Shown here one piece after another: positions 519-35,972 of a stretch of 64,000 bases of DNA. The position numbers and the translations under genes were made by a program. Below the pieces are notes generated by a model. The model made no database searches and was not told where the DNA came from. It worked only from the letters and a program-made list of their open reading frames with translations. Origin of the DNA: Candidatus Undinarchaeota archaeon. GTDB taxonomy: Archaea; SpSt-1190; JASMDC01. Location of the stretch: the NCBI GenBank assembly GCA_964519305.1, contig CAZFHY010000001.1:346132-410131 (forward strand), given 5' to 3'. How positions within the stretch are numbered: the first letter of the stretch is position 1; every line of letters starts with the position of its first letter.

Positions 519-1151
519 ATGCAGACACGTATCATAGGGCATTTCGCACCGGTGATGGAGATCGACCTCTACCAGGGCGAGACCATCGTGTGCGAGCGCG
601 GTGCCATGTTGTACGAGACGCCGGACATCCACTCAGACGCCGTGCTTGGTATGGGATTCTTCTCCCGTCTGTTCACCGGCGAGTCCGCTGCTCTGGACAA
701 GTACGAGGGTCCCGGAACCGTAGGAATCGCTGCGGGCAAGCCCGGGATGATCAAGGAGCTCGACCTCCAGCCCGGCCAGGCCATCGACATCGCCCACTCG
801 GGTTTCCTTGCCATGGAGCCCACGGTACAGTTCTCTATCTCACTTGCGTCCCACAACCTCGTCAAGCTCATAGGCATGGCCAGCTTCGCCCGGGACAACC
901 TCATCTTCCAGAACCTGACGGGACCGGGAAAGGTGTTCATGCACGTCCACGGGGACTACGTCATTACGTATCTTGAGCAGGGCCAGACCATGATGATCGA
1001 TCAGGGCTATCTAGTGTTCAAGGACCACAGCGTCGAGCTGGAGCTGGTCCGCGTCCACGGCATCGAGAACATCCTCATCGGGGGCGAGGGGCTATTCCTG
1101 CTACAGGTCTCAGGACCGGGGTACGTGGGCATACAGTCGATGAGGGGGTGA
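519..1151 (+). CDS. AIM24 family protein (tandem paralog)
   Basis: ATG at 519 follows a GGTGGTGA SD-like site; ERGAM, FTGES and GGEGLFLLQVSGPG motifs; the ORF-track start at 213 overlaps the previous gene. Confidence 0.8.
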   Translation: MQTRIIGHFAPVMEIDLYQGETIVCERGAMLYETPDIHSDAVLGMGFFSRLFTGESAALDKYEGPGTVGIAAGKPGMIKELDLQPGQAIDIAHSGFLAMEPTVQFSISLASHNLVKLIGMASFARDNLIFQNLTGPGKVFMHVHGDYVITYLEQGQTMMIDQGYLVFKDHSVELELVRVHGIENILIGGEGLFLLQVSGPGYVGIQSMRG

Positions 1152-31109: not shown

Positions 31110-32246
31110 ATGGTGGAGCTTGCAGGTGTCGAGCGCACTGTCGTGTTCTTGGAACAGGGTCATGATGCGTACGACCTCGCGTCCTATGGGATTACCGTCG
31201 AGGAGGCGTACACGTCACTGAACGCCGCCCTCGTATCACATGCTGACGACCAGGAGCTCGCTGATCTCCAGACCACGGGCGTCATCACCTGCTACGGCGA
31301 CGAGCGCGCGGTCACCATAACCCACAGTGATCAGCCCTATGAGCTCGCCACGGGTGTCGGACCGGAGGACGTGGCCCAGGACTGGGGCTACAAGCGCGTG
31401 CACGCCACCGAGGCGAACGCCCGGGGGCTCACCGGTGTCGGTGTGAAGGTGGGCATACTCGACACGGGGATCGACGCGTCACATCCTTACATCATCGACG
31501 CCTACCGCGGATTCACTGACCTGATCTACGATAAACCCGACCCGTACGATGACCACGGCCACGGCACTCACATCGCCGGTATCATCCACACAGTAGCTCC
31601 CGAGGCCGAGCTGTACAGCTACAAGGTCATCACGGGCAAGGGCGATGACGGGTTCTCGGTAGCGCTCCGCGCACTCGACAAGGCCGTCGCGGACGGAATG
31701 GACGTGGTCAACATGTCATTTGGGATGGAGACCGCAGAGGACTTTGAGGGACTGCCCAAGGCCGAGGTGGACCGCCTCGTCAATGAAGCGTGCTCACGGG
31801 TGTACGACGCGGGAGTGTTCCTCATAGCGTCCTCTGGCAACGCCCGGGAGATGGCCGATCCTGAGACGGGCCTTAGCAGGACGTCTCCCGGCTCCTGCCC
31901 CGACGTGTTCACCGTTGGCGCGTCCTGGGAGGACAATGACCGCCTTTACAACAACACGAACCTCGGATTCGACATAGTCGCGCCCGGGACAAGCATCCTC
32001 TCCTCGGTCCCCGGTGGCTACACCACCTGGACGGGCACTTCCATGTCCACGCCCATGGTGACCGGCGCCGTGGCAGCCATCAAGTCAAGGTACAACGACA
32101 TTTCAAACGATGATATCAAAGAGACGCTCCTGACCTCGGGCACCGAGGCCACGAGCAGCGTCCTCCGCCCCTGGCATAGCCTTACCGTCGAGTACAACGT
32201 GCTCGACCTCGAGTCCGCCGCCGACCTGCTCGATGAACGTGCATGA
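31110..32246 (+). CDS. Subtilisin-like S8 serine peptidase (tandem paralog)
   Basis: LDTG, HGHGTHIAG, ASSGN and GTSMSTP motifs; no signal peptide. Confidence 0.92.
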   Translation: MVELAGVERTVVFLEQGHDAYDLASYGITVEEAYTSLNAALVSHADDQELADLQTTGVITCYGDERAVTITHSDQPYELATGVGPEDVAQDWGYKRVHATEANARGLTGVGVKVGILDTGIDASHPYIIDAYRGFTDLIYDKPDPYDDHGHGTHIAGIIHTVAPEAELYSYKVITGKGDDGFSVALRALDKAVADGMDVVNMSFGMETAEDFEGLPKAEVDRLVNEACSRVYDAGVFLIASSGNAREMADPETGLSRTSPGSCPDVFTVGASWEDNDRLYNNTNLGFDIVAPGTSILSSVPGGYTTWTGTSMSTPMVTGAVAAIKSRYNDISNDDIKETLLTSGTEATSSVLRPWHSLTVEYNVLDLESAADLLDERA

Positions 32247-32265
32247 TTCACGGCCTTGTTGGACC

Positions 32266-32378
32266 GAGAAAGTTCGGGGGGCGGTGGTGGCAGCGAGGAA
32301 GCGTAAACAGGAATAGGCGGCGCTTCCCCTTCCCGCCCCCCAGGAGGGTGCGAGAACGGAGTTCCCGTTCCCCCCGTC
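32266..32378 (-). ncRNA. Putative small RNA, copy 1
   Basis: GAAAGGTATATAT BRE-TATA on - (32400-32412); 5' hairpin, GC stem, invariant GCUGCCACCACCGC, UUUCUC end. Confidence 0.7.
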
Positions 32379-32428
32379 CATTAATCAGTCGTGGGCGGGA
32401 TATATACCTTTCTAATCGATAGAATCGT

Positions 32429-32540
32429 GAGAAGGGGCCGGGGGGCGGTGGTGGCAGCCAAAGGGAAGGCCAAGCAGCACTATTGATTAGGTGAACCTTC
32501 CATCCCGTCCCCCGGGGGGAGAAAAGCACTCACTCTCCCC
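32429..32540 (-). ncRNA. Putative small RNA, copy 2
   Basis: GGAAGGTATAAAT BRE-TATA on - (32563-32575); same scaffold, motif at 32445-32458. Confidence 0.7.
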
Positions 32541-32604
32541 ATTATATCTAGTCATGCATGCCATTTATACCTTCCGTAGACGAGGTCCGGGCAGAAAGGA
32601 TGTG

Positions 32605-32710
32605 GAGAAAGAGGCCCGGGGGAGCGGTGGTGGCAGCCAAGGATGGTCAGAAAAAAACAGGGAACCCATCCTATGTCGTCCCCCCGGGAGGCGTGTTTGC
32701 CGTTTTCCTC
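32605..32710 (-). ncRNA. Putative small RNA, copy 3
   Basis: GTATATAT on - (32734-32741); same scaffold, motif at 32624-32637. Confidence 0.7.
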
Positions 32711-32761
32711 AAATTGGTCATGGCGTGGATGGCATATATACGTGCCGGACGTGAACTGCGC

Positions 32762-34876
32762 TCACCGTGCCCGTCCTCTGCGCGCGACGCACGCGGCCAG
32801 AGTGAGCTGGTGACCACCGGGTGCCAGGCGCCTGGCGAGCTCCTCGGCAGGGATCCCGAAGGGGGCCAGGAGAGTCCCCGCGCTCCGGAGGAGTAGGTCA
32901 GTGTACCGGTCGGGAGCGTATCCGTCGGCCTCGCCCGCGGGCACGGGCCGGCCCTCGGCACCCCACACGTACCGCACCTTCTGACCAGGAAGGAGCTCGA
33001 CGCCCTCGTCGCGCAATGCCGTTGCCACCACCGCCGTGGGCGAGCGGCCGCGGTAGTCTGAGCGGGACACCACCGTGCATACCTCCAGTTCATCGGACCG
33101 GACGTCACCGGACCGCACCCCTTCCACTGCCTGACGCAGCACCTCCACGGCACCGGGCAGGGCTTCGTGCACCGCGGCGAGATCGGGGCAGCCGGCGAGG
33201 ATGCCCAGGATGCGTGCCTGGAGCCGGCGCACCACCCCCGGCGCGTCCCTGCGTCGCGACTCGAGCCCACGCACCTTGAGCTCGCCGGTGACGTACCGAC
33301 CGAAGTAGCGGTTCGCCGCCGCGACCTCGGGGTGGAGACGCGAGGGGGAGAAGGCCAGCCATCCGTACACCCCCTCCAGCTCCAGTTCCACGTCCACGGC
33401 TCTACCGATGGCCGATGCCAGGCCGGCGAGCTCGTCATCCCGCCCCGCGAGAGTGCTCCCGTCCTCGTGCCGCAACCACAGGCAATCCACTATACCGTGC
33501 ACCACCGAGAACCCTGCCTCCTCGGCCATGCGAGCCGCGCGAACGAGCTTGTCACGACCGAAGGCGGTCACCGACTCGTGTGCCTCGATCCGGCCGAACC
33601 GGGCGTTGCGGTAGCCCAGGTACCCGAAGCATGTTACCAGCATCCATTTGAGCGACTGCTGGCGCCGCTCGTACCCCACGCGCTCCGCACCGCGCGTTGC
33701 CCGGGCCCGTCGCTTGTAGTGCCGCCGCCGCGCAAGCAGCGGAGCGATGGTCTCGGGCACCAGCCCGCGGCGCCTGCTGCAGAGATGATAGCCCAGCACG
33801 GGCACTGTCGCTACGCCATCGTCCCCGCAGCACGGGCACTGGACGGTCTCGGGCGAGATGTTGTGGTGGTCCATGATGGTGGGGTACATGGACGCGAAGT
33901 CCATCTCGGCCACCTGCTCCACGGCGCCCGGCACCGGCTCCAGCACCAGACCGCCCCGGTCCGCCTGTACCAGCTGCCAGGCGGTCTTGAACGCCTCGGG
34001 CTCGCCCTTGCGCCAGGGCACCAGCATATCGTGGCGCAGCGCCGTCGCCACCTCCATGGCGCTGATGGCAGTGCCCGGTGAGGTATGCGCCATGCGCTGA
34101 GGGGTGATACAGGATAGCCGGGACAGCTCGATGAGCCCCTCAAGCCCGCACCTGCGCACGAAGAAGGAATGGTCGCCGTCCACGTGCCATCGGCCGTGCA
34201 GTGTCTGGAACGGGGGCTTGTACACCACCCGCCCGTAGGATACGTAGGAACGCGCGCGCCGCCGCACGGCCTCCACAGGCTCACGGGATACCATATGGAT
34301 GTCAGCGCAGGGGCCGTGGGTTATCACCACGTCCGGGTCCCGTCCGATGCAGGCCGCGCGTGCGCTCCTTCCCCGGGACACCTCCACGACCTCGAGACGG
34401 GGCACCGAGTAGTCCATGGCATCGGCAGCGTCGCCGTCGAGCGTCACGTCACGCAACCGCCCGTCGTCGTCGGCAGTGAACCGCACCCGTGCCAGGGGGA
34501 ACAGCCCACGCTCGATGAGGAAACGCGTCTCGAGCGCCACGTCGCAGGTGCACACCTCGCCCGCCGTCCCCACGTCATCGCGGACCCGGGCCGCCGTCGC
34601 CTCCATCCGTGCCGGATCGGCGGGATGGACCTCTGCCACTGTGGCCTCATACCCGGACCACACGTCCGCGCGCCGTGCTGTCGCCACCCGGTCCACCCCG
34701 GGAAGCCGGCGCAGGCGGGGGAGGAGCCGGGCCAGGGGCTGTGTCCGCGGGAGCACGTAGAAGGGAGGACGGTAGGATGCTGCGAGGCGGACGGTACCTC
34801 CCTGCTCGCGCTTCACCCAGAGGGCGACCTCGCTCCCGTCGGCATGGACGTCAAGGACCCAACCCGTCCCCTGCAT
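32762..34876 (-). CDS. polB2: Family B DNA polymerase, PolB2 group
   Basis: DFASMYP, Q..LKW.LVTCFGY.GY, HGIVDC (variant of YGDTDS), NRYFG and KVRGLE.RRRD motifs; degenerate exonuclease domain. Confidence 0.9.
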   Translation of the reverse strand: MQGTGWVLDVHADGSEVALWVKREQGGTVRLAASYRPPFYVLPRTQPLARLLPRLRRLPGVDRVATARRADVWSGYEATVAEVHPADPARMEATAARVRDDVGTAGEVCTCDVALETRFLIERGLFPLARVRFTADDDGRLRDVTLDGDAADAMDYSVPRLEVVEVSRGRSARAACIGRDPDVVITHGPCADIHMVSREPVEAVRRRARSYVSYGRVVYKPPFQTLHGRWHVDGDHSFFVRRCGLEGLIELSRLSCITPQRMAHTSPGTAISAMEVATALRHDMLVPWRKGEPEAFKTAWQLVQADRGGLVLEPVPGAVEQVAEMDFASMYPTIMDHHNISPETVQCPCCGDDGVATVPVLGYHLCSRRRGLVPETIAPLLARRRHYKRRARATRGAERVGYERRQQSLKWMLVTCFGYLGYRNARFGRIEAHESVTAFGRDKLVRAARMAEEAGFSVVHGIVDCLWLRHEDGSTLAGRDDELAGLASAIGRAVDVELELEGVYGWLAFSPSRLHPEVAAANRYFGRYVTGELKVRGLESRRRDAPGVVRRLQARILGILAGCPDLAAVHEALPGAVEVLRQAVEGVRSGDVRSDELEVCTVVSRSDYRGRSPTAVVATALRDEGVELLPGQKVRYVWGAEGRPVPAGEADGYAPDRYTDLLLRSAGTLLAPFGIPAEELARRLAPGGHQLTLAACVARRGRAR

Positions 34877-35129
34877 CCTCGTCCACCTCCGCCAGACGCG
34901 CGGTCAGCCGCTCGAGCGCCTTCTGGTGCTCCAGGAGCACCGCAAGCATCACCGGCTCCATGGCGAGCGGGCTGGCCGCCATGGTGGCGGCAGCGGCGTG
35001 GCCCCGGGCCAGGTCGAACAGCCGGTCGAAGGCATCCCGGTCCGGTCGCCGCAGCCCGTCACGGAAGGGCCGCCAGCGCGCCTCCTCGGCGGCCAGCAGG
35101 TGGCGGAACGTGGCCACGGTCCGGCCCAT
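34851..35129 (-). CDS. Small helical PolB2-associated protein (arCOG07300-like)
   Basis: MGRTVATFR...W..FR..LR..DR..FD.L pattern, immediately upstream of polB2. Confidence 0.8.
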   Translation of the reverse strand: MGRTVATFRHLLAAEEARWRPFRDGLRRPDRDAFDRLFDLARGHAAAATMAASPLAMEPVMLAVLLEHQKALERLTARLAEVDEDAGDGLGP

Positions 35130-35130
35130 G

Positions 35131-35796
35131 TCAGGCACCACACACAGCCCAGGGAAAGGGATCAGGCGTCGCCGCCAGCGGCACCACCGGCCCCCCCTCC
35201 AGCTGGAGCCGCAGCCCTGGGAGCAGCTCAGCGCACGCTACGGCCCGCCGCCGGGCCAGACGCTCCAGATACCCCTCATGCTCCCGGTCCAGGGTGACCA
35301 GGCACGCGGCGTTCGCGTATCGCACCGCGCGGGCGAGGGCGTCCAGGGTACGGCGGAAGAGCGCAACGCCCTCCCGTGCGGGCACGTCTGTGAACGAACT
35401 GGTCAGCGACAGCACCGCTACCAGCCGCGCCCCGGTGATCGCCAGCTGCCGGGGCAGCCTCTCTGTCACGAGCCGGGCCAGCTGGTGACAGGTGAACGCC
35501 CGGGAGACGGTCACGGCCTCCAGCACCCTCCGCGGCGGCGCGCCCAGGTGCTGTGCCCATCGCGACAGGGCCGAGGGGTCGAAGCGGTTGCCGCCGTCGA
35601 CCACAACGGCCCGCACCTCCCCCCCGGGCGCGAGCGCCGCCCTGGCCAGTGCCAGGGACACGGGGAAGGAGGTGGGTCGGAGCACGGTGACCCGGCCGGG
35701 CGCCAGGGGAAGCGCCACTGCCTCTCGACGGACATCGGAGGGATCGGTCCGGTCCAGGAACGGCTGCCGGGCCCCGTGCTCCCATGGAAGCGCCAT
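35131..35796 (-). CDS. Degenerate RadA/RecA-like protein of the PolB2 operon
   Basis: VDGGNRFDP and SRAFTCHQL motifs; no Walker A; TTTATTGA on - about 25 nt upstream of ATG 35796. Confidence 0.8.
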   Translation of the reverse strand: MALPWEHGARQPFLDRTDPSDVRREAVALPLAPGRVTVLRPTSFPVSLALARAALAPGGEVRAVVVDGGNRFDPSALSRWAQHLGAPPRRVLEAVTVSRAFTCHQLARLVTERLPRQLAITGARLVAVLSLTSSFTDVPAREGVALFRRTLDALARAVRYANAACLVTLDREHEGYLERLARRRAVACAELLPGLRLQLEGGPVVPLAATPDPFPWAVCGA

Positions 35797-35972
35797 GGTA
35801 GAGATGAGCCGTTCATGGGTCAATAAAGCCGGCAGGCCGGCGTGCCGGTACTCGCGGTGTGTGAGCACACTCACTACCACACCTAACACGGTCTTTTTCA
35901 ACCGTCCCGGCGTCGTCCTCTCTGGTGGGATGGACGGTACGAAAGCGCTCGCTGCTCAAGGGGGTCACATCC

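Follow-up and report, generated by a model that had tools for sequence, protein, structure and literature searches.

Behind a gene for a family-B DNA polymerase-like protein lie three structured units, here called A, B and C, which are all read from the minus strand and are arranged as direct repeats with a period of 164 and 179 nt (Table 1; positions are those of the window, the 64-kb stretch of DNA that was analysed). The repeat layout as first noted for this region is confirmed. The array shares the strand of the polymerase gene and starts 21 nt past its stop codon; a subtilase gene converges on the array from downstream. The polymerase gene matches Pfam DNA_pol_B (1.7e-25) and scores 389 bits with NCBIfam NF004416, under the cut-off of that model. 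By the SSU model the host is archaeal (1508 vs 1157 bits); it is uncultured and marine, with a genome of 3.6 Mb, compared with 0.6 to 1.2 Mb for its class-level relatives in the genome set. Its lineage is otherwise known only from metagenomes.

Table 1. Features of the array, its neighbors and further family members (window positions unless a contig is named)
Feature	Position	Strand	Remarks
Subtilase gene	31110..32246	+	convergent, downstream of array; Pfam Peptidase_S8 2.3e-44; context only
Unit C RNA, approximate ends	32264..32382	-	covariance model (CM) R2, 94.1 bits
Unit C tail	32274-32264	-	
Unit C outer stem	32342-32333 with 32284-32275	-	
Unit C bulge GCUGCCACCA	32294-32285	-	
Unit C inner stem	32329-32321 with 32303-32295	-	
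Unit C apical loop	32320-32304	-	
Unit C 5' two-tier hairpin	32375-32343	-	
Unit C BRE/TATA-like promoter GAAAGGTATATAT	32400..32412	-	TATATAT at 32406-32400; sister genome has GAAAGGTAAATA
Unit B RNA, approximate ends	32427..32545	-	CM R2, 70.2 bits
Unit B tail	32437-32427	-	
Unit B outer stem	32515-32505 with 32448-32438	-	
Unit B bulge	32463-32449	-	
Unit B inner stem	32501-32496 with 32469-32464	-	
Unit B apical loop	32495-32470	-	
Unit B 5' hairpin	32540-32516	-	
Unit B BRE/TATA-like promoter GGAAGGTATAAAT	32563..32575	-	TATAAAT at 32569-32563; GGAAGGTAT kept in sister genome
Unit A RNA, approximate ends	32604..32714	-	CM R2, 82.3 bits
Unit A tail	32614-32604	-	
Unit A outer stem	32688-32677 with 32626-32615	-	
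Unit A bulge UGGCUGCCACCA	32639-32628	-	
Unit A inner stem	32672-32666 with 32646-32640	-	
Unit A apical loop	32665-32647	-	
Unit A 5' hairpin	from 32710	-	
Unit A TATA-like box TATATAT	32734..32740	-	23 nt upstream of 5' hairpin; identical in sister genome
Family-B DNA polymerase-like gene, 704 aa	32762..34876	-	upstream neighbor, same strand; context, outside RNA family
Member D	contig C4		solo gene; syntenic orthologue on C29 of sister genome; own TATA-like box
Member E	contig L093, sister genome		own TATA-like box
Member F	contig C6		compact two-hairpin relative; own TATA-like box

Architecture and promoters of the units

All three units follow one plan: a 5' hairpin, a G:C outer stem, an inner stem that differs in sequence from unit to unit and yet pairs, an unpaired GCUGCCACC, and a pyrimidine tail. 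Stems, bulge and (U)UUCUC tails all agree with the description in the earlier note, with apical loops of 19, 26 and 17 nt in A, B and C. The 14-mer GCGGTGGTGGCAGC is found exactly at 32281, 32445 and 32624 (plus strand), one per unit; at up to two mismatches there are 5 matches, where 1.41 would be expected, and these include the three exact copies of A to C. That note had called the 14-mer invariant, which is true of the window but not of a sister-species genome, where unit B has U and unit C has C at the central position. The loops, which it had called variable, do differ among the paralogues, but UUCCUGUUU-like runs are common to A and C, and CCUAAU/CCUAUU to B and C.

Each unit is preceded by a TATA box of its own, with the 5' hairpin beginning 22 to 24 nt beyond it. 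These promoters are of the same type as those before host tRNA genes (gaaaGGTTTAAAA), and the boxes are kept in the sister genome, whereas the spacers diverge; at promoter A, 23 of 25 positions are identical. A scan for sigma-70 promoters and intrinsic terminators gave no sites, as is to be expected of sigma-70 promoters in an archaeal host. The tails contain only two or three consecutive U residues and are weak as archaeal terminators, and so termination behind each of the units is uncertain.

Folded singly, the units are not clearly or significantly better than shuffled sequences (z of -1.6, -0.65 and -2.36). The antisense strand folds equally well or better for A, B and the further member E (see below), so that fold energy does not discriminate between strands and the strand assignment relies on promoter orientation, wobble pairs and the tails.

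Conservation and distribution of the family

In the sister-species genome, A, B and C are all present at the same location. The scaffold is identical at 182 of 202 positions (90.1%) and the spacers at 41 of 80 (51.2%; Fisher p 6e-12), compared with 161 of 204 (78.9%) for the third codon positions of the polymerase gene; unit A alone matches its orthologue at 102 of 113 positions. The apical loops are 72.9% identical, and the RGCUGCCA-type motif is conserved far better than they are.

The changes that do occur in stems between the two genomes are wobble or compensatory. In the orthologue of unit C, three stem positions go from G-C to G-U, and 5' hairpins are retained through differing sequence, as is seen for unit B. 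When the structure was given by hand, 94.5% of 128 cells paired, vs 54 to 66% with the partners slid. Five stem pairs have changed on both sides, with a covariation score that was matched by none of 500 shuffles; given that the family is found in just two closely related genomes, this covariation amounts to few independent events, and a shuffle control overstates covariation among related sequences. By the pair-type count in the same test, 14 cells are G-U wobbles, which are compatible with the minus strand only.

The units share no peptide, as had been noted before. The sole minus-strand ORF spanning them (32248-32529, 93 aa) has a GC3 of 0.60, vs 0.79 to 0.88 in neighboring genes, and in the sister genome there are indels of 1 nt and 7 nt inside the units. 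Coding is excluded by the indels together with the low GC3.

The array is not the only home of the family. Searching the genome and its relatives with covariance models, as the earlier note had advised, turned up further copies and no linked gene. There are four loci in the genome of the window and five in the sister genome. Members D, E and F resemble A to C in layout and stand at unrelated loci, and neighbors differ from locus to locus (polymerase with subtilase, TPP enzyme with GTPase, or a small ORF). Member F, which surfaced in a genome-wide scan of hairpins with UGCCACC loops, has no counterpart in the sister genome. The contig that carries E is 1,559 bp long with no convincing ORF, and its ends overlap by 77 nt, implying that it is circular or tandem.

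RGCUGCCA is the truly invariant core of all members. In A to C, RGCUGCCA(CC) lies in an asymmetric internal loop beside a rigid G:C helix. In D and F, UGCCACC appears in two places each: F displays both copies in hairpin loops, and D has one in its 5'-hairpin loop and a second that may be paired within the inner helix.

Covariance-model matches were found in 2 of 151 genomes. A pattern scan gave at least 119 metagenome loci and 10 viral-contig loci; after rescoring with R2, one of the 129 matches listed is real (L171, 88.9 bits, the same score as unit C of the sister genome), and the others listed reach at most 25.5 bits. As far as searched, which for the metagenomes means among the matches listed, the family is restricted to one genus.

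Comparison with known RNAs and elements

At the gathering threshold, Rfam 15 has no matches across the window. With 4227 models and E up to 10, the region 32200-32800 gives chance matches to miRNA and lncRNA models only, at 14 to 22 bits vs gathering thresholds of 50 to 97; the best are animal miRNA models with E of 0.3 to 8.6. At the other loci of the family, Rfam finds one tRNA and one weak chance match. A match to a known family, which had been named as evidence against a new one, was thus looked for with Rfam and is absent. Taken with the conservation of the units, the covarying stems and the tRNA-type promoters, this supports the view that A to C represent a previously undescribed family of small, separately promoted structured RNA genes, as far as sequence can tell.

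Several established classes were considered and rejected. ARAGORN finds no tRNA genes in the window, and no Rfam tRNA model matches the units. Archaeal box C/D sRNAs have a C box (RUGAUGA) near the 5' end, a D box (CUGA) near the 3' end and a K-turn within about 50 to 70 nt; units A to C, at about 105 to 125 nt, contain no UGAUGA, and a single CUGA lies in the apical loop of A. Archaeal H/ACA sRNAs have a pseudouridylation pocket formed from two sides, an upper stem that contains a K-turn or K-loop, and an ACA/ANA box immediately 3' of the lower stem. Here the trinucleotide behind the outer stem is GCC, CCC or AAC, no tandem G-A motif was noticed, and the internal loop has 3 to 5 nt on its 5' side vs 10 to 15 nt on a 3' side that is near-identical across units. 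Thus, although both guide classes are likewise small archaeal RNAs, of an abundant type, that combine a constant, protein-binding scaffold with variable guide parts, the units lack their defining boxes and pocket geometry and have no match to a snoRNA-type Rfam model. The stand-alone intergenic archaeal RNA genes HgcC, HgcE, HgcF, HgcG and SscA, which were discovered through their G+C-rich composition and have G:C-rich helices and unknown function, differ in that no Rfam model matches the units even with E up to 10.

A CRISPR array consists of identical repeats of about 25 to 40 nt with unique spacers of similar length and one leader, usually with cas genes nearby; the present array has a period of 164/179 nt and a promoter-like box per unit, and no cas-type domains were found in 16 scanned neighbor proteins. 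A MITE or other dispersed mobile repeat, an origin that the earlier note had said would tell against an RNA family, would show many scattered copies bounded by terminal inverted repeats and target-site duplications; here the copies are few, A to C and D are syntenic between the genomes, and no terminal inverted repeats were noticed by eye. In an archaeal replication origin, ORB repeats flank an AT-rich unwinding element beside orc1/cdc6; here the single Cdc6_C match (C2:55512-55760) is on another contig, and the units are direct rather than inverted.

The nearest likenesses are bacterial. In the published description of the LhrC family of Listeria monocytogenes, the RNAs are 105 to 121 nt long, form two stem-loops and repeat a short C-rich motif in their loops and single-stranded parts, and four of the genes lie in one intergenic region with others elsewhere. 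Going by that description, the present family resembles LhrC1-5, Rli22 and Rli33-1 in size (about 105 to 125 nt), in its three adjacent genes with D and F elsewhere, in its two hairpins and in a C-rich element, here UGCCACC/GCUGCCACC, in loops or bulge. The layout of LhrC-like siblings, with homologous genes of about 100 nt, clustered and dispersed, two stem-loops and a shared exposed motif, is therefore what is found here. There is no similarity of sequence or model to LhrC; the promoters are archaeal and not bacterial, the motif is neither UCCC nor complementary to the host Shine-Dalgarno (SD) sequence, and the second hairpin of A to C holds a large inserted inner hairpin. The units are best read, tentatively, as multicopy sibling regulatory sRNAs, LhrC-like in layout, by which we mean a functional class and not homology.

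The published account of CcsR1-4 ("cuckoo" RNAs) in Rhodobacter sphaeroides and other Alphaproteobacteria gives four tandem homologous sRNAs that follow a protein gene directly, each folding into two hairpins with a conserved C-rich motif in the loops, cut from an mRNA 3' UTR, with copies at other loci and on plasmids. Against that account, the units here differ by an own promoter-like box each, by a different motif and by an upstream gene family that is not linked to the RNA. The anti-SD motif of the CcsR RNAs, CCUCCUCCC, is missing from the loops of all units.

Possible roles of the RNAs

We favor the view, at a probability of roughly 45%, that A to C are independently promoted noncoding RNA genes of about 105 to 125 nt, belonging to a one-genus family of sibling sRNAs whose motif pairs with targets in trans. 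We infer that the family RNAs are transcribed, act in trans and do so by base pairing. In each RNA the 5' hairpin would come first, followed by a long G:C-clamped hairpin and a U/C tail. The clamp would present an unpaired RGCUGCCA(CC), placed in an internal loop in A to C, in the hairpin loops of F and in the 5'-hairpin loop of D. The exposed C-rich element could then be the recognition site, most probably through base pairing to GGUGGCAGC-like stretches in target RNAs, and the variable apical hairpin might tune stability or specificity. One can imagine that multiple gene copies allow dosage or differential regulation, by analogy with the logic of bacterial siblings such as LhrC1-5.

Searches for targets found none above chance level. 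The earlier note had suggested that CCACCA is an anti-SD seed for GGUGGUGA. The host SD is instead GGAGGUG: GGAGGTG occurs 72 times with a peak at -14/-13 (16 and 9 of these), GGTGGTG shows no peak among 25 occurrences, and the central A of the motif varies between species. The genome contains the complement of the motif, GGTGGCAGC, at 52 sites, compared with 78 for its reversed control; the sites show no pattern around start codons, and none is in the rRNA operon region. Genome-wide, 25 hairpins have a UGCCACC loop vs 31 to 49 for control motifs, that is, no general enrichment. A stretch of the polymerase mRNA, GCGGUGGUGGCAAC (33021-33034), is complementary to the bulge apart from a single mismatch; synonymous substitutions set it apart in the sister genome, and the complementarity, not being conserved, is treated as chance.

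It is possible, though less probable, that the family RNAs instead bind or sequester proteins or act as RNP scaffolds, with RGCUGCCA(CC) as a protein site and a logic like that of CsrB/RsmZ or Y RNAs. A protein-binding role would account equally for the facts behind the pairing view. It suits a motif that lies in an asymmetric internal loop by a rigid G:C helix, that repeats in loops of the same RNA, and that is much better conserved than the apical loops with no convincing RNA target found. It fits less well with the different neighbors at each locus, among which there is no linked partner gene, and with just one or two motif copies per RNA; known sequestering RNAs have far more motif copies each.

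The position of the array close behind the polymerase gene, in the same orientation, and the weak terminator tails of A to C would also suit 3'-UTR, terminator or stability structures of the polymerase transcript, or RNAs processed from it. Similar G:C hairpins follow many host tRNA genes, and CcsR1-4 are described as coming from a 3' UTR. We consider this unlikely: a conserved BRE/TATA-like box precedes each unit, D, E and F occur at unrelated loci, each behind its own TATA-like box, and units were found beside none of 78 homologous polymerase loci, where model R3 had no matches below E 0.35. It is quite unlikely that the repeats are DNA-level binding sites, ORB-like in kind, or the debris of a small mobile element such as L093, with no functional RNA. 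The copy on that 1,559-bp unit speaks for such an origin, as does the G-run beside the conserved box, which we take to be loosely ORB-like. Against this, the wobble and compensatory changes in stems are not needed by DNA-binding sites, the sole orc1/cdc6 match is on another contig, the few copies are syntenic without noticeable terminal inverted repeats, and none occur in phage, plasmid or viral collections (for the viral, among the matches listed).

A constant scaffold whose loops differ among paralogues had also suggested programmable guide or template RNAs with a target-specifying loop, and the resemblance of the element to an acceptor strand, discriminator and CCA had suggested a mimic of the tRNA 3' end (GCC-A-CCA). 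Both ideas are now highly improbable. The loops are neither conserved nor wholly replaced; they drift between species at about the synonymous rate, roughly neutrally, and the residual likeness of the A/C and B/C loops is what duplication predicts. A search of loops and units against the genome (blastn-short) and of loops against viral DNA, proposed together with the guide idea, found no significant target: the best complement or identity matches in the genome are 12 to 17 nt, at chance level, and the loops match none of 50,697 phage and 72,556 plasmid records. One 17-nt stretch of same-sense identity, in coding sequence on contig C20 (E 0.021), is taken as chance. Effector genes (Cas, TnpB/IscB, reverse transcriptase, recombinase) are absent from the Pfam-scanned neighbors. 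As for mimicry, a GCUGCC-A acceptor end occurs in none of 38 tRNA genes, the base following GCUGCCACC differs between species, and where the motif has CCA the sister genome has CCU or CCC. It is very unlikely, too, that we are dealing with an undescribed system, either one in which a scaffold with a GCC-A-CCA-like element would recruit a tRNA-end-recognising or dedicated protein and the apical hairpin would pick the partner, or one in which a 1.56-kb RNA-only circular replicon (L093) would have seeded the chromosome.

Beyond model species, few archaeal sRNAs have a defined family. A limited literature search found no description of tandem sibling sRNA arrays in archaea, which does not imply that there is none in print. 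If expressed, the sibling sRNAs favored here would be a compact, sequence-defined family of four or five genes with an exposed invariant element of 8 to 9 nt. They could offer a handle on posttranscriptional control in archaeal lineages known from metagenomes, and a test of whether the bacterial design of sibling sRNAs with C-rich loops has arisen independently in archaea. A family confined to two genomes, with target searches that gave no hit above chance, limits how much practical weight this carries.

Both genomes appear to be represented in assemblies of four DNA runs; no RNA run is among those listed as containing this stretch. Two of the four, which are flagged as possible sources of the DNA, cover the window with near-identical sequence, in one case as a single piece. 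The other two, from other studies, yield short pieces that are 80 to 90% alike, and among the differences listed those that could be checked are the sister genome's. There is one "skip" of low likeness between units B and A, for which cross-mapping of the repeats is the simplest explanation.

Array layout, promoters and host

On the minus strand, three units follow one another head to tail within 32745-32260, and the unit coordinates and stems of the earlier note are all correct in that reading. In each unit a 5′ hairpin begins 22-24 nt past a TATA-like box. An outer stem follows, formed by a G-rich strand and a C-rich strand ~60-75 nt further downstream, together with an inner stem whose sequence varies by unit with pairing kept. 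The apical loops of units A-C are 19, 26 and 17 nt, and on the 3′ side an unpaired (U)GGCUGCCACCA precedes a pyrimidine tail.

The host genome, G000 (3.63 Mb, 42 contigs, ~63% G+C), is archaeal by its SSU rRNA, which scores 1508 bits with the archaeal model against 1157 bits with the bacterial one. Many of its 38 tRNA genes (ARAGORN) have boxes such as cgaaaGGTTTAAAAaaag, ggaaaGGTTAAAAaatc and aaaacCTTTATAAtt at about -30 to -45. As before tRNA genes, the promoters of units B and C (GGAAGGTATAAAT and GAAAGGTATATAT) consist of a purine-rich BRE-like stretch and a TATA box, and their distance to the first hairpin matches tRNA-gene spacing. The BRE-to-TATA order indicates transcription along the minus strand. 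A bacterial promoter and terminator scan gave no sites, as expected for an archaeon.

At 3.6 Mb and 63% G+C, this genome is assigned to a class from which the other genomes sampled are DPANN-sized (0.6-1.2 Mb); its family and genus hold one further genome only in the set searched. A few bases 3′ of many of its tRNA genes lie G:C hairpins (GGGAGGGG-loop-CCCCUCCC, lacking any long run of T), which may be a lineage-specific terminator or 3′-processing signal; the outer stems of the units resemble them.

Positions of the features (bare numbers, window; G000, host genome; G001, same-genus sister-species genome; C plus number, contig; L093, contig C115 of G001; L236, a further locus)
Feature	Position	Strand	Remark
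Unit A TATA-like box	32740-32734	minus	TATATAT
Unit B TATA-like box	32569-32563	minus	TATAAAT
Unit C TATA-like box	32406-32400	minus	TATATAT
14-mer GCGGTGGTGGCAGC	32281, 32445, 32624		exact copies
Polymerase-like gene, family B	32762-34876	minus	same strand as units; stop borders array
Subtilase gene	31110-32246		convergent with units; stop borders array
Two-gene polymerase cassette	32762-35901	minus	
Member D	G000:C4:158028-158108	plus	orthologue G001:C29:30074-30155
Member E	L093:151-237	minus	full unit
Member F	G000:C6:52505-52602		compact form
26-codon ORF region after F	G000:C6:52616-52696		= L236:617-697
Mini-hairpin, loop UUUGCCA	L093:921-965	plus	a UUCCUUCCCCCCGG mini-element
Other UUCCUUCCCCCCGG mini-elements	G000:C6:4354, C18:85886, C18:72166		
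Hairpin, loop UCUUGCCACCU	L093: about 840-870		found by eye
CGGCCTTCTAGCTCCGGGCCGCTGAGACGGCCCTCCGCC element	G000:C8:660-716, C8:129327-129400, C8:129885-129942; L093:1488-1562		
~40-nt repeat	G000:C26:31725, C26:28511, C15:101350	minus	
tRNA genes with 3′ G:C hairpin	G000:C8:41253, C11:61046, C11:120775, C12:36401, C20:35106, C21:56736		examples

Conservation, structure and distribution

The polymerase protein has a single near relative (92% identity), at locus L006 of the sister species; its remaining matches are all bacterial, at 33-41%. L006 has all three units in the corresponding position between polymerase and subtilase genes, with promoter boxes retained and inter-unit sequence scrambled. 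The scaffold (model span minus apical loop) is identical at 182 of 202 positions (90.1%), against 41/80 (51.2%) in the spacers between units and genes (Fisher p = 6e-12). Identity is 51/70 (72.9%) in the apical loops, 64/87 (73.6%) in the 5′ hairpin regions, and 161/204 (78.9%) and 64/87 (73.6%) at third codon positions of the polymerase and subtilase. By these figures, purifying selection acts on the scaffold, and drift in the apical loops proceeds at roughly the synonymous rate. A coding role is excluded by indels of 1 and 7 nt within units between the two genomes and by the low GC3 (0.60) of the only ORF overlapping them.

A first covariance model (R1) combined unit C, its orthologue and a structure written by hand; six units were aligned with it and the model rebuilt as R2, and R3 was built from eight sequences. 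In the eight-sequence alignment, which was fitted to the very structure whose pairs were counted, 94.5% of 128 cells pair in standard fashion, and 54-66% do so once the 3′ partners have been shifted by 1-3 columns. Both sides changed in five pairs, and none of 500 shuffles reached the covariation score (six sequences were also tested), with two close genomes plus paralogues as input and hence few independent events. By hand count, fourteen cells are G-U or U-G, which would be A-C mismatches on the opposite strand. Three G-C pairs of unit C are G-U in its orthologue, and in the orthologues differing sequence maintains the 5′ hairpins of both B and C. Single-sequence folds did not significantly outperform shuffles (z -1.6, -0.65, -2.36), and antisense folds of A, B and E were equally or more stable.

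In the host genome, R1 found the three units and nothing else. Three further members (D, E and F) emerged from relaxed model searches of the two genomes and a motif-in-loop scan, all within one genus. Member D has its own ACCTTTTTAACC box, a 5′-hairpin loop GUGUGCCACCCG, the outer stem of units A-C, a AGCUGCCACCU element and, as its tail, U5. It is flanked by genes for a TPP enzyme and, convergently, a YchF-like GTPase, an arrangement syntenic between the two genomes. Member F, searched for in G001 but not found there, has one hairpin with loop AAGUGCCACC, a second with a GGGGGGGACG/CGUUCCCUCC stem and loop AGCUGCCACC, and a U6 tail. Directly after F comes a strong Shine-Dalgarno sequence, GAGGAGGU, with an ORF of 26 codons behind it whose peptide (MYMLSVVIGGALVIYISITQYLAFKA) would be very hydrophobic, so that F may also double as the leader of a putative small membrane protein gene. 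Constant across all members is RGCUGCCA / UGCCACC, shown unpaired on G:C-rich helices. The 14-mer once taken as invariant, though exact in units A-C, is its local form only: in the sister genome, units B and C have U and C, respectively, directly after GCUGCCACC.

R2 matched 2 of 101 genomes, G000 and G001. With an E cut-off of 0.1, R3 matched three of 151 genomes, but we regard the G139 match (23.2 bits, E 0.067) as noise; class-level relatives in that set (0.6-1.2 Mb) gave none. At least 119 metagenome loci and 10 viral loci matched a 19-letter pattern drawn to fit all six units, and among the 129 matches listed, R2 rescoring left one real: L171, a contig beginning within the array, at 88.9 bits, the same score as unit C of G001. 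Sister-species-like pieces of the array also occur in contigs from two further DNA studies, and phage and plasmid collections gave no match to the units.

Candidate roles

We put the chance that the units are real noncoding RNA genes of a new family at about three in four. That the family was undescribed has held up: neither Rfam nor ARAGORN gave a match, and C/D-box, H/ACA, CRISPR, MITE and origin-box identities each fail a defining feature. A replication origin at the array was rejected, orc1/cdc6 sitting on another contig. The suggestion of guide or template RNAs, drawn from the variable loops, found no support: these loops drift neutrally between species. Apical loops of paralogues retain traces of common descent; the genome holds no significant loop complement (the best hit, 17 nt identical in the same sense within a coding region, has E 0.021), phage and plasmid records no match to the loops, and the scanned neighbours of the units and D no effector-type gene. 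Pairing of CCACCA as an anti-Shine-Dalgarno seed with GGUGGUGA was also proposed, but GGTGGTG shows no peak before candidate starts; it is GGAGGTG that peaks there, at -14/-13, and the 16S 3′ end reads ...GAUCACCUCCU. Mimicry of a tRNA 3′ end fails too, as no tRNA of the genome has a matching acceptor end. A complement of the units in the polymerase mRNA (33021-33034) is not conserved in the sister genome. An accessory RNA of the polymerase cassette was likewise rejected: none of 78 homologous loci has a unit, and D, E and F lie elsewhere.

On our preferred reading, the units would be transcribed independently as structured sRNAs of a small multicopy family, and these siblings would act in trans, contacting partners through RGCUGCCA(CC), which would base-pair with partner RNAs. 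Promoter-like boxes, scaffold selection, stem covariation, the motif, clustered and dispersed copies and the parallels below all suggest this reading, which, pairing mechanism included, we hold tentatively, at a little short of an even chance. The exposed, invariant, C-rich element, present twice per RNA in some members, might instead bind a protein; RNA pairing seems somewhat more likely. The LhrC family of Listeria comprises RNAs of 105-121 nt with two stem-loops; four of its genes share one intergenic region and others lie elsewhere, and the RNAs pair with targets through a short C-rich motif found in their loops and single-stranded parts. Multicopy, clustered and dispersed, and C-rich in motif, it is the nearest functional parallel documented here. 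The CcsR/cuckoo RNAs are a second parallel: four sRNAs with two hairpins each stand in tandem behind a gene and share a C-rich motif in their loops. The family is new but of a general kind already known. Tandem siblings with their own promoters are unusual for archaea; the literature found, in a search far from exhaustive, concerns bacterial sRNAs, judging by titles. The feature looks real and undescribed, and is limited, within the searches above, to one uncultured genus.

Neighbouring cassette and other repeats

In the polymerase-like gene the third polymerase motif is degenerate, reading HGIVDC where YGDTDS is the usual form. A 256-aa RecA/Rad51-fold gene precedes it, and bacterial MAGs share this cassette of two genes (Deltaproteobacteria, Bacteroidota and Ignavibacteria; L012 and L017 among them) at 33-41% identity. 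In L017 it lies directly 3′ of a lexA gene, which suggests a putative SOS-type damage-tolerance module common to both domains.

The most intriguing loose end is L093, the RNA-only 1.56-kb contig of the sister genome that carries E. Its 1,636 nt have ends with an exact 77-nt overlap, implying a circle or tandem unit of 1,559 bp; its G+C varies between about 36 and 58% along the sequence, which has no convincing ORF. Either a tiny replicon encoding RNA only or an assembly artefact derived from a repeat could account for it. An element of ~60-75 nt (CGGCCTTCTAGCTCCGGGCCGCTGAGACGGCCCTCCGCC...) has one copy there and three on C8 of G000, the latter near a tRNA-Cys gene and lower-G+C DNA; it has no Rfam match and may be a further small RNA or a repeat of attachment type. 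A ~40-nt repeat, GGCATGGTGTGGCACCTGGAAT(T/A)..TTCCTTCCCCCCGC, occurs at at least three G000 sites. Several mini-elements, with TATA-like boxes in front of some, read UUCCUUCCCCCCGG-hairpin-AC(C)UUYUUUCUU; they resemble an outer stem plus tail of the family from which the insert is missing, and could be either terminators or RNAs of very small size.
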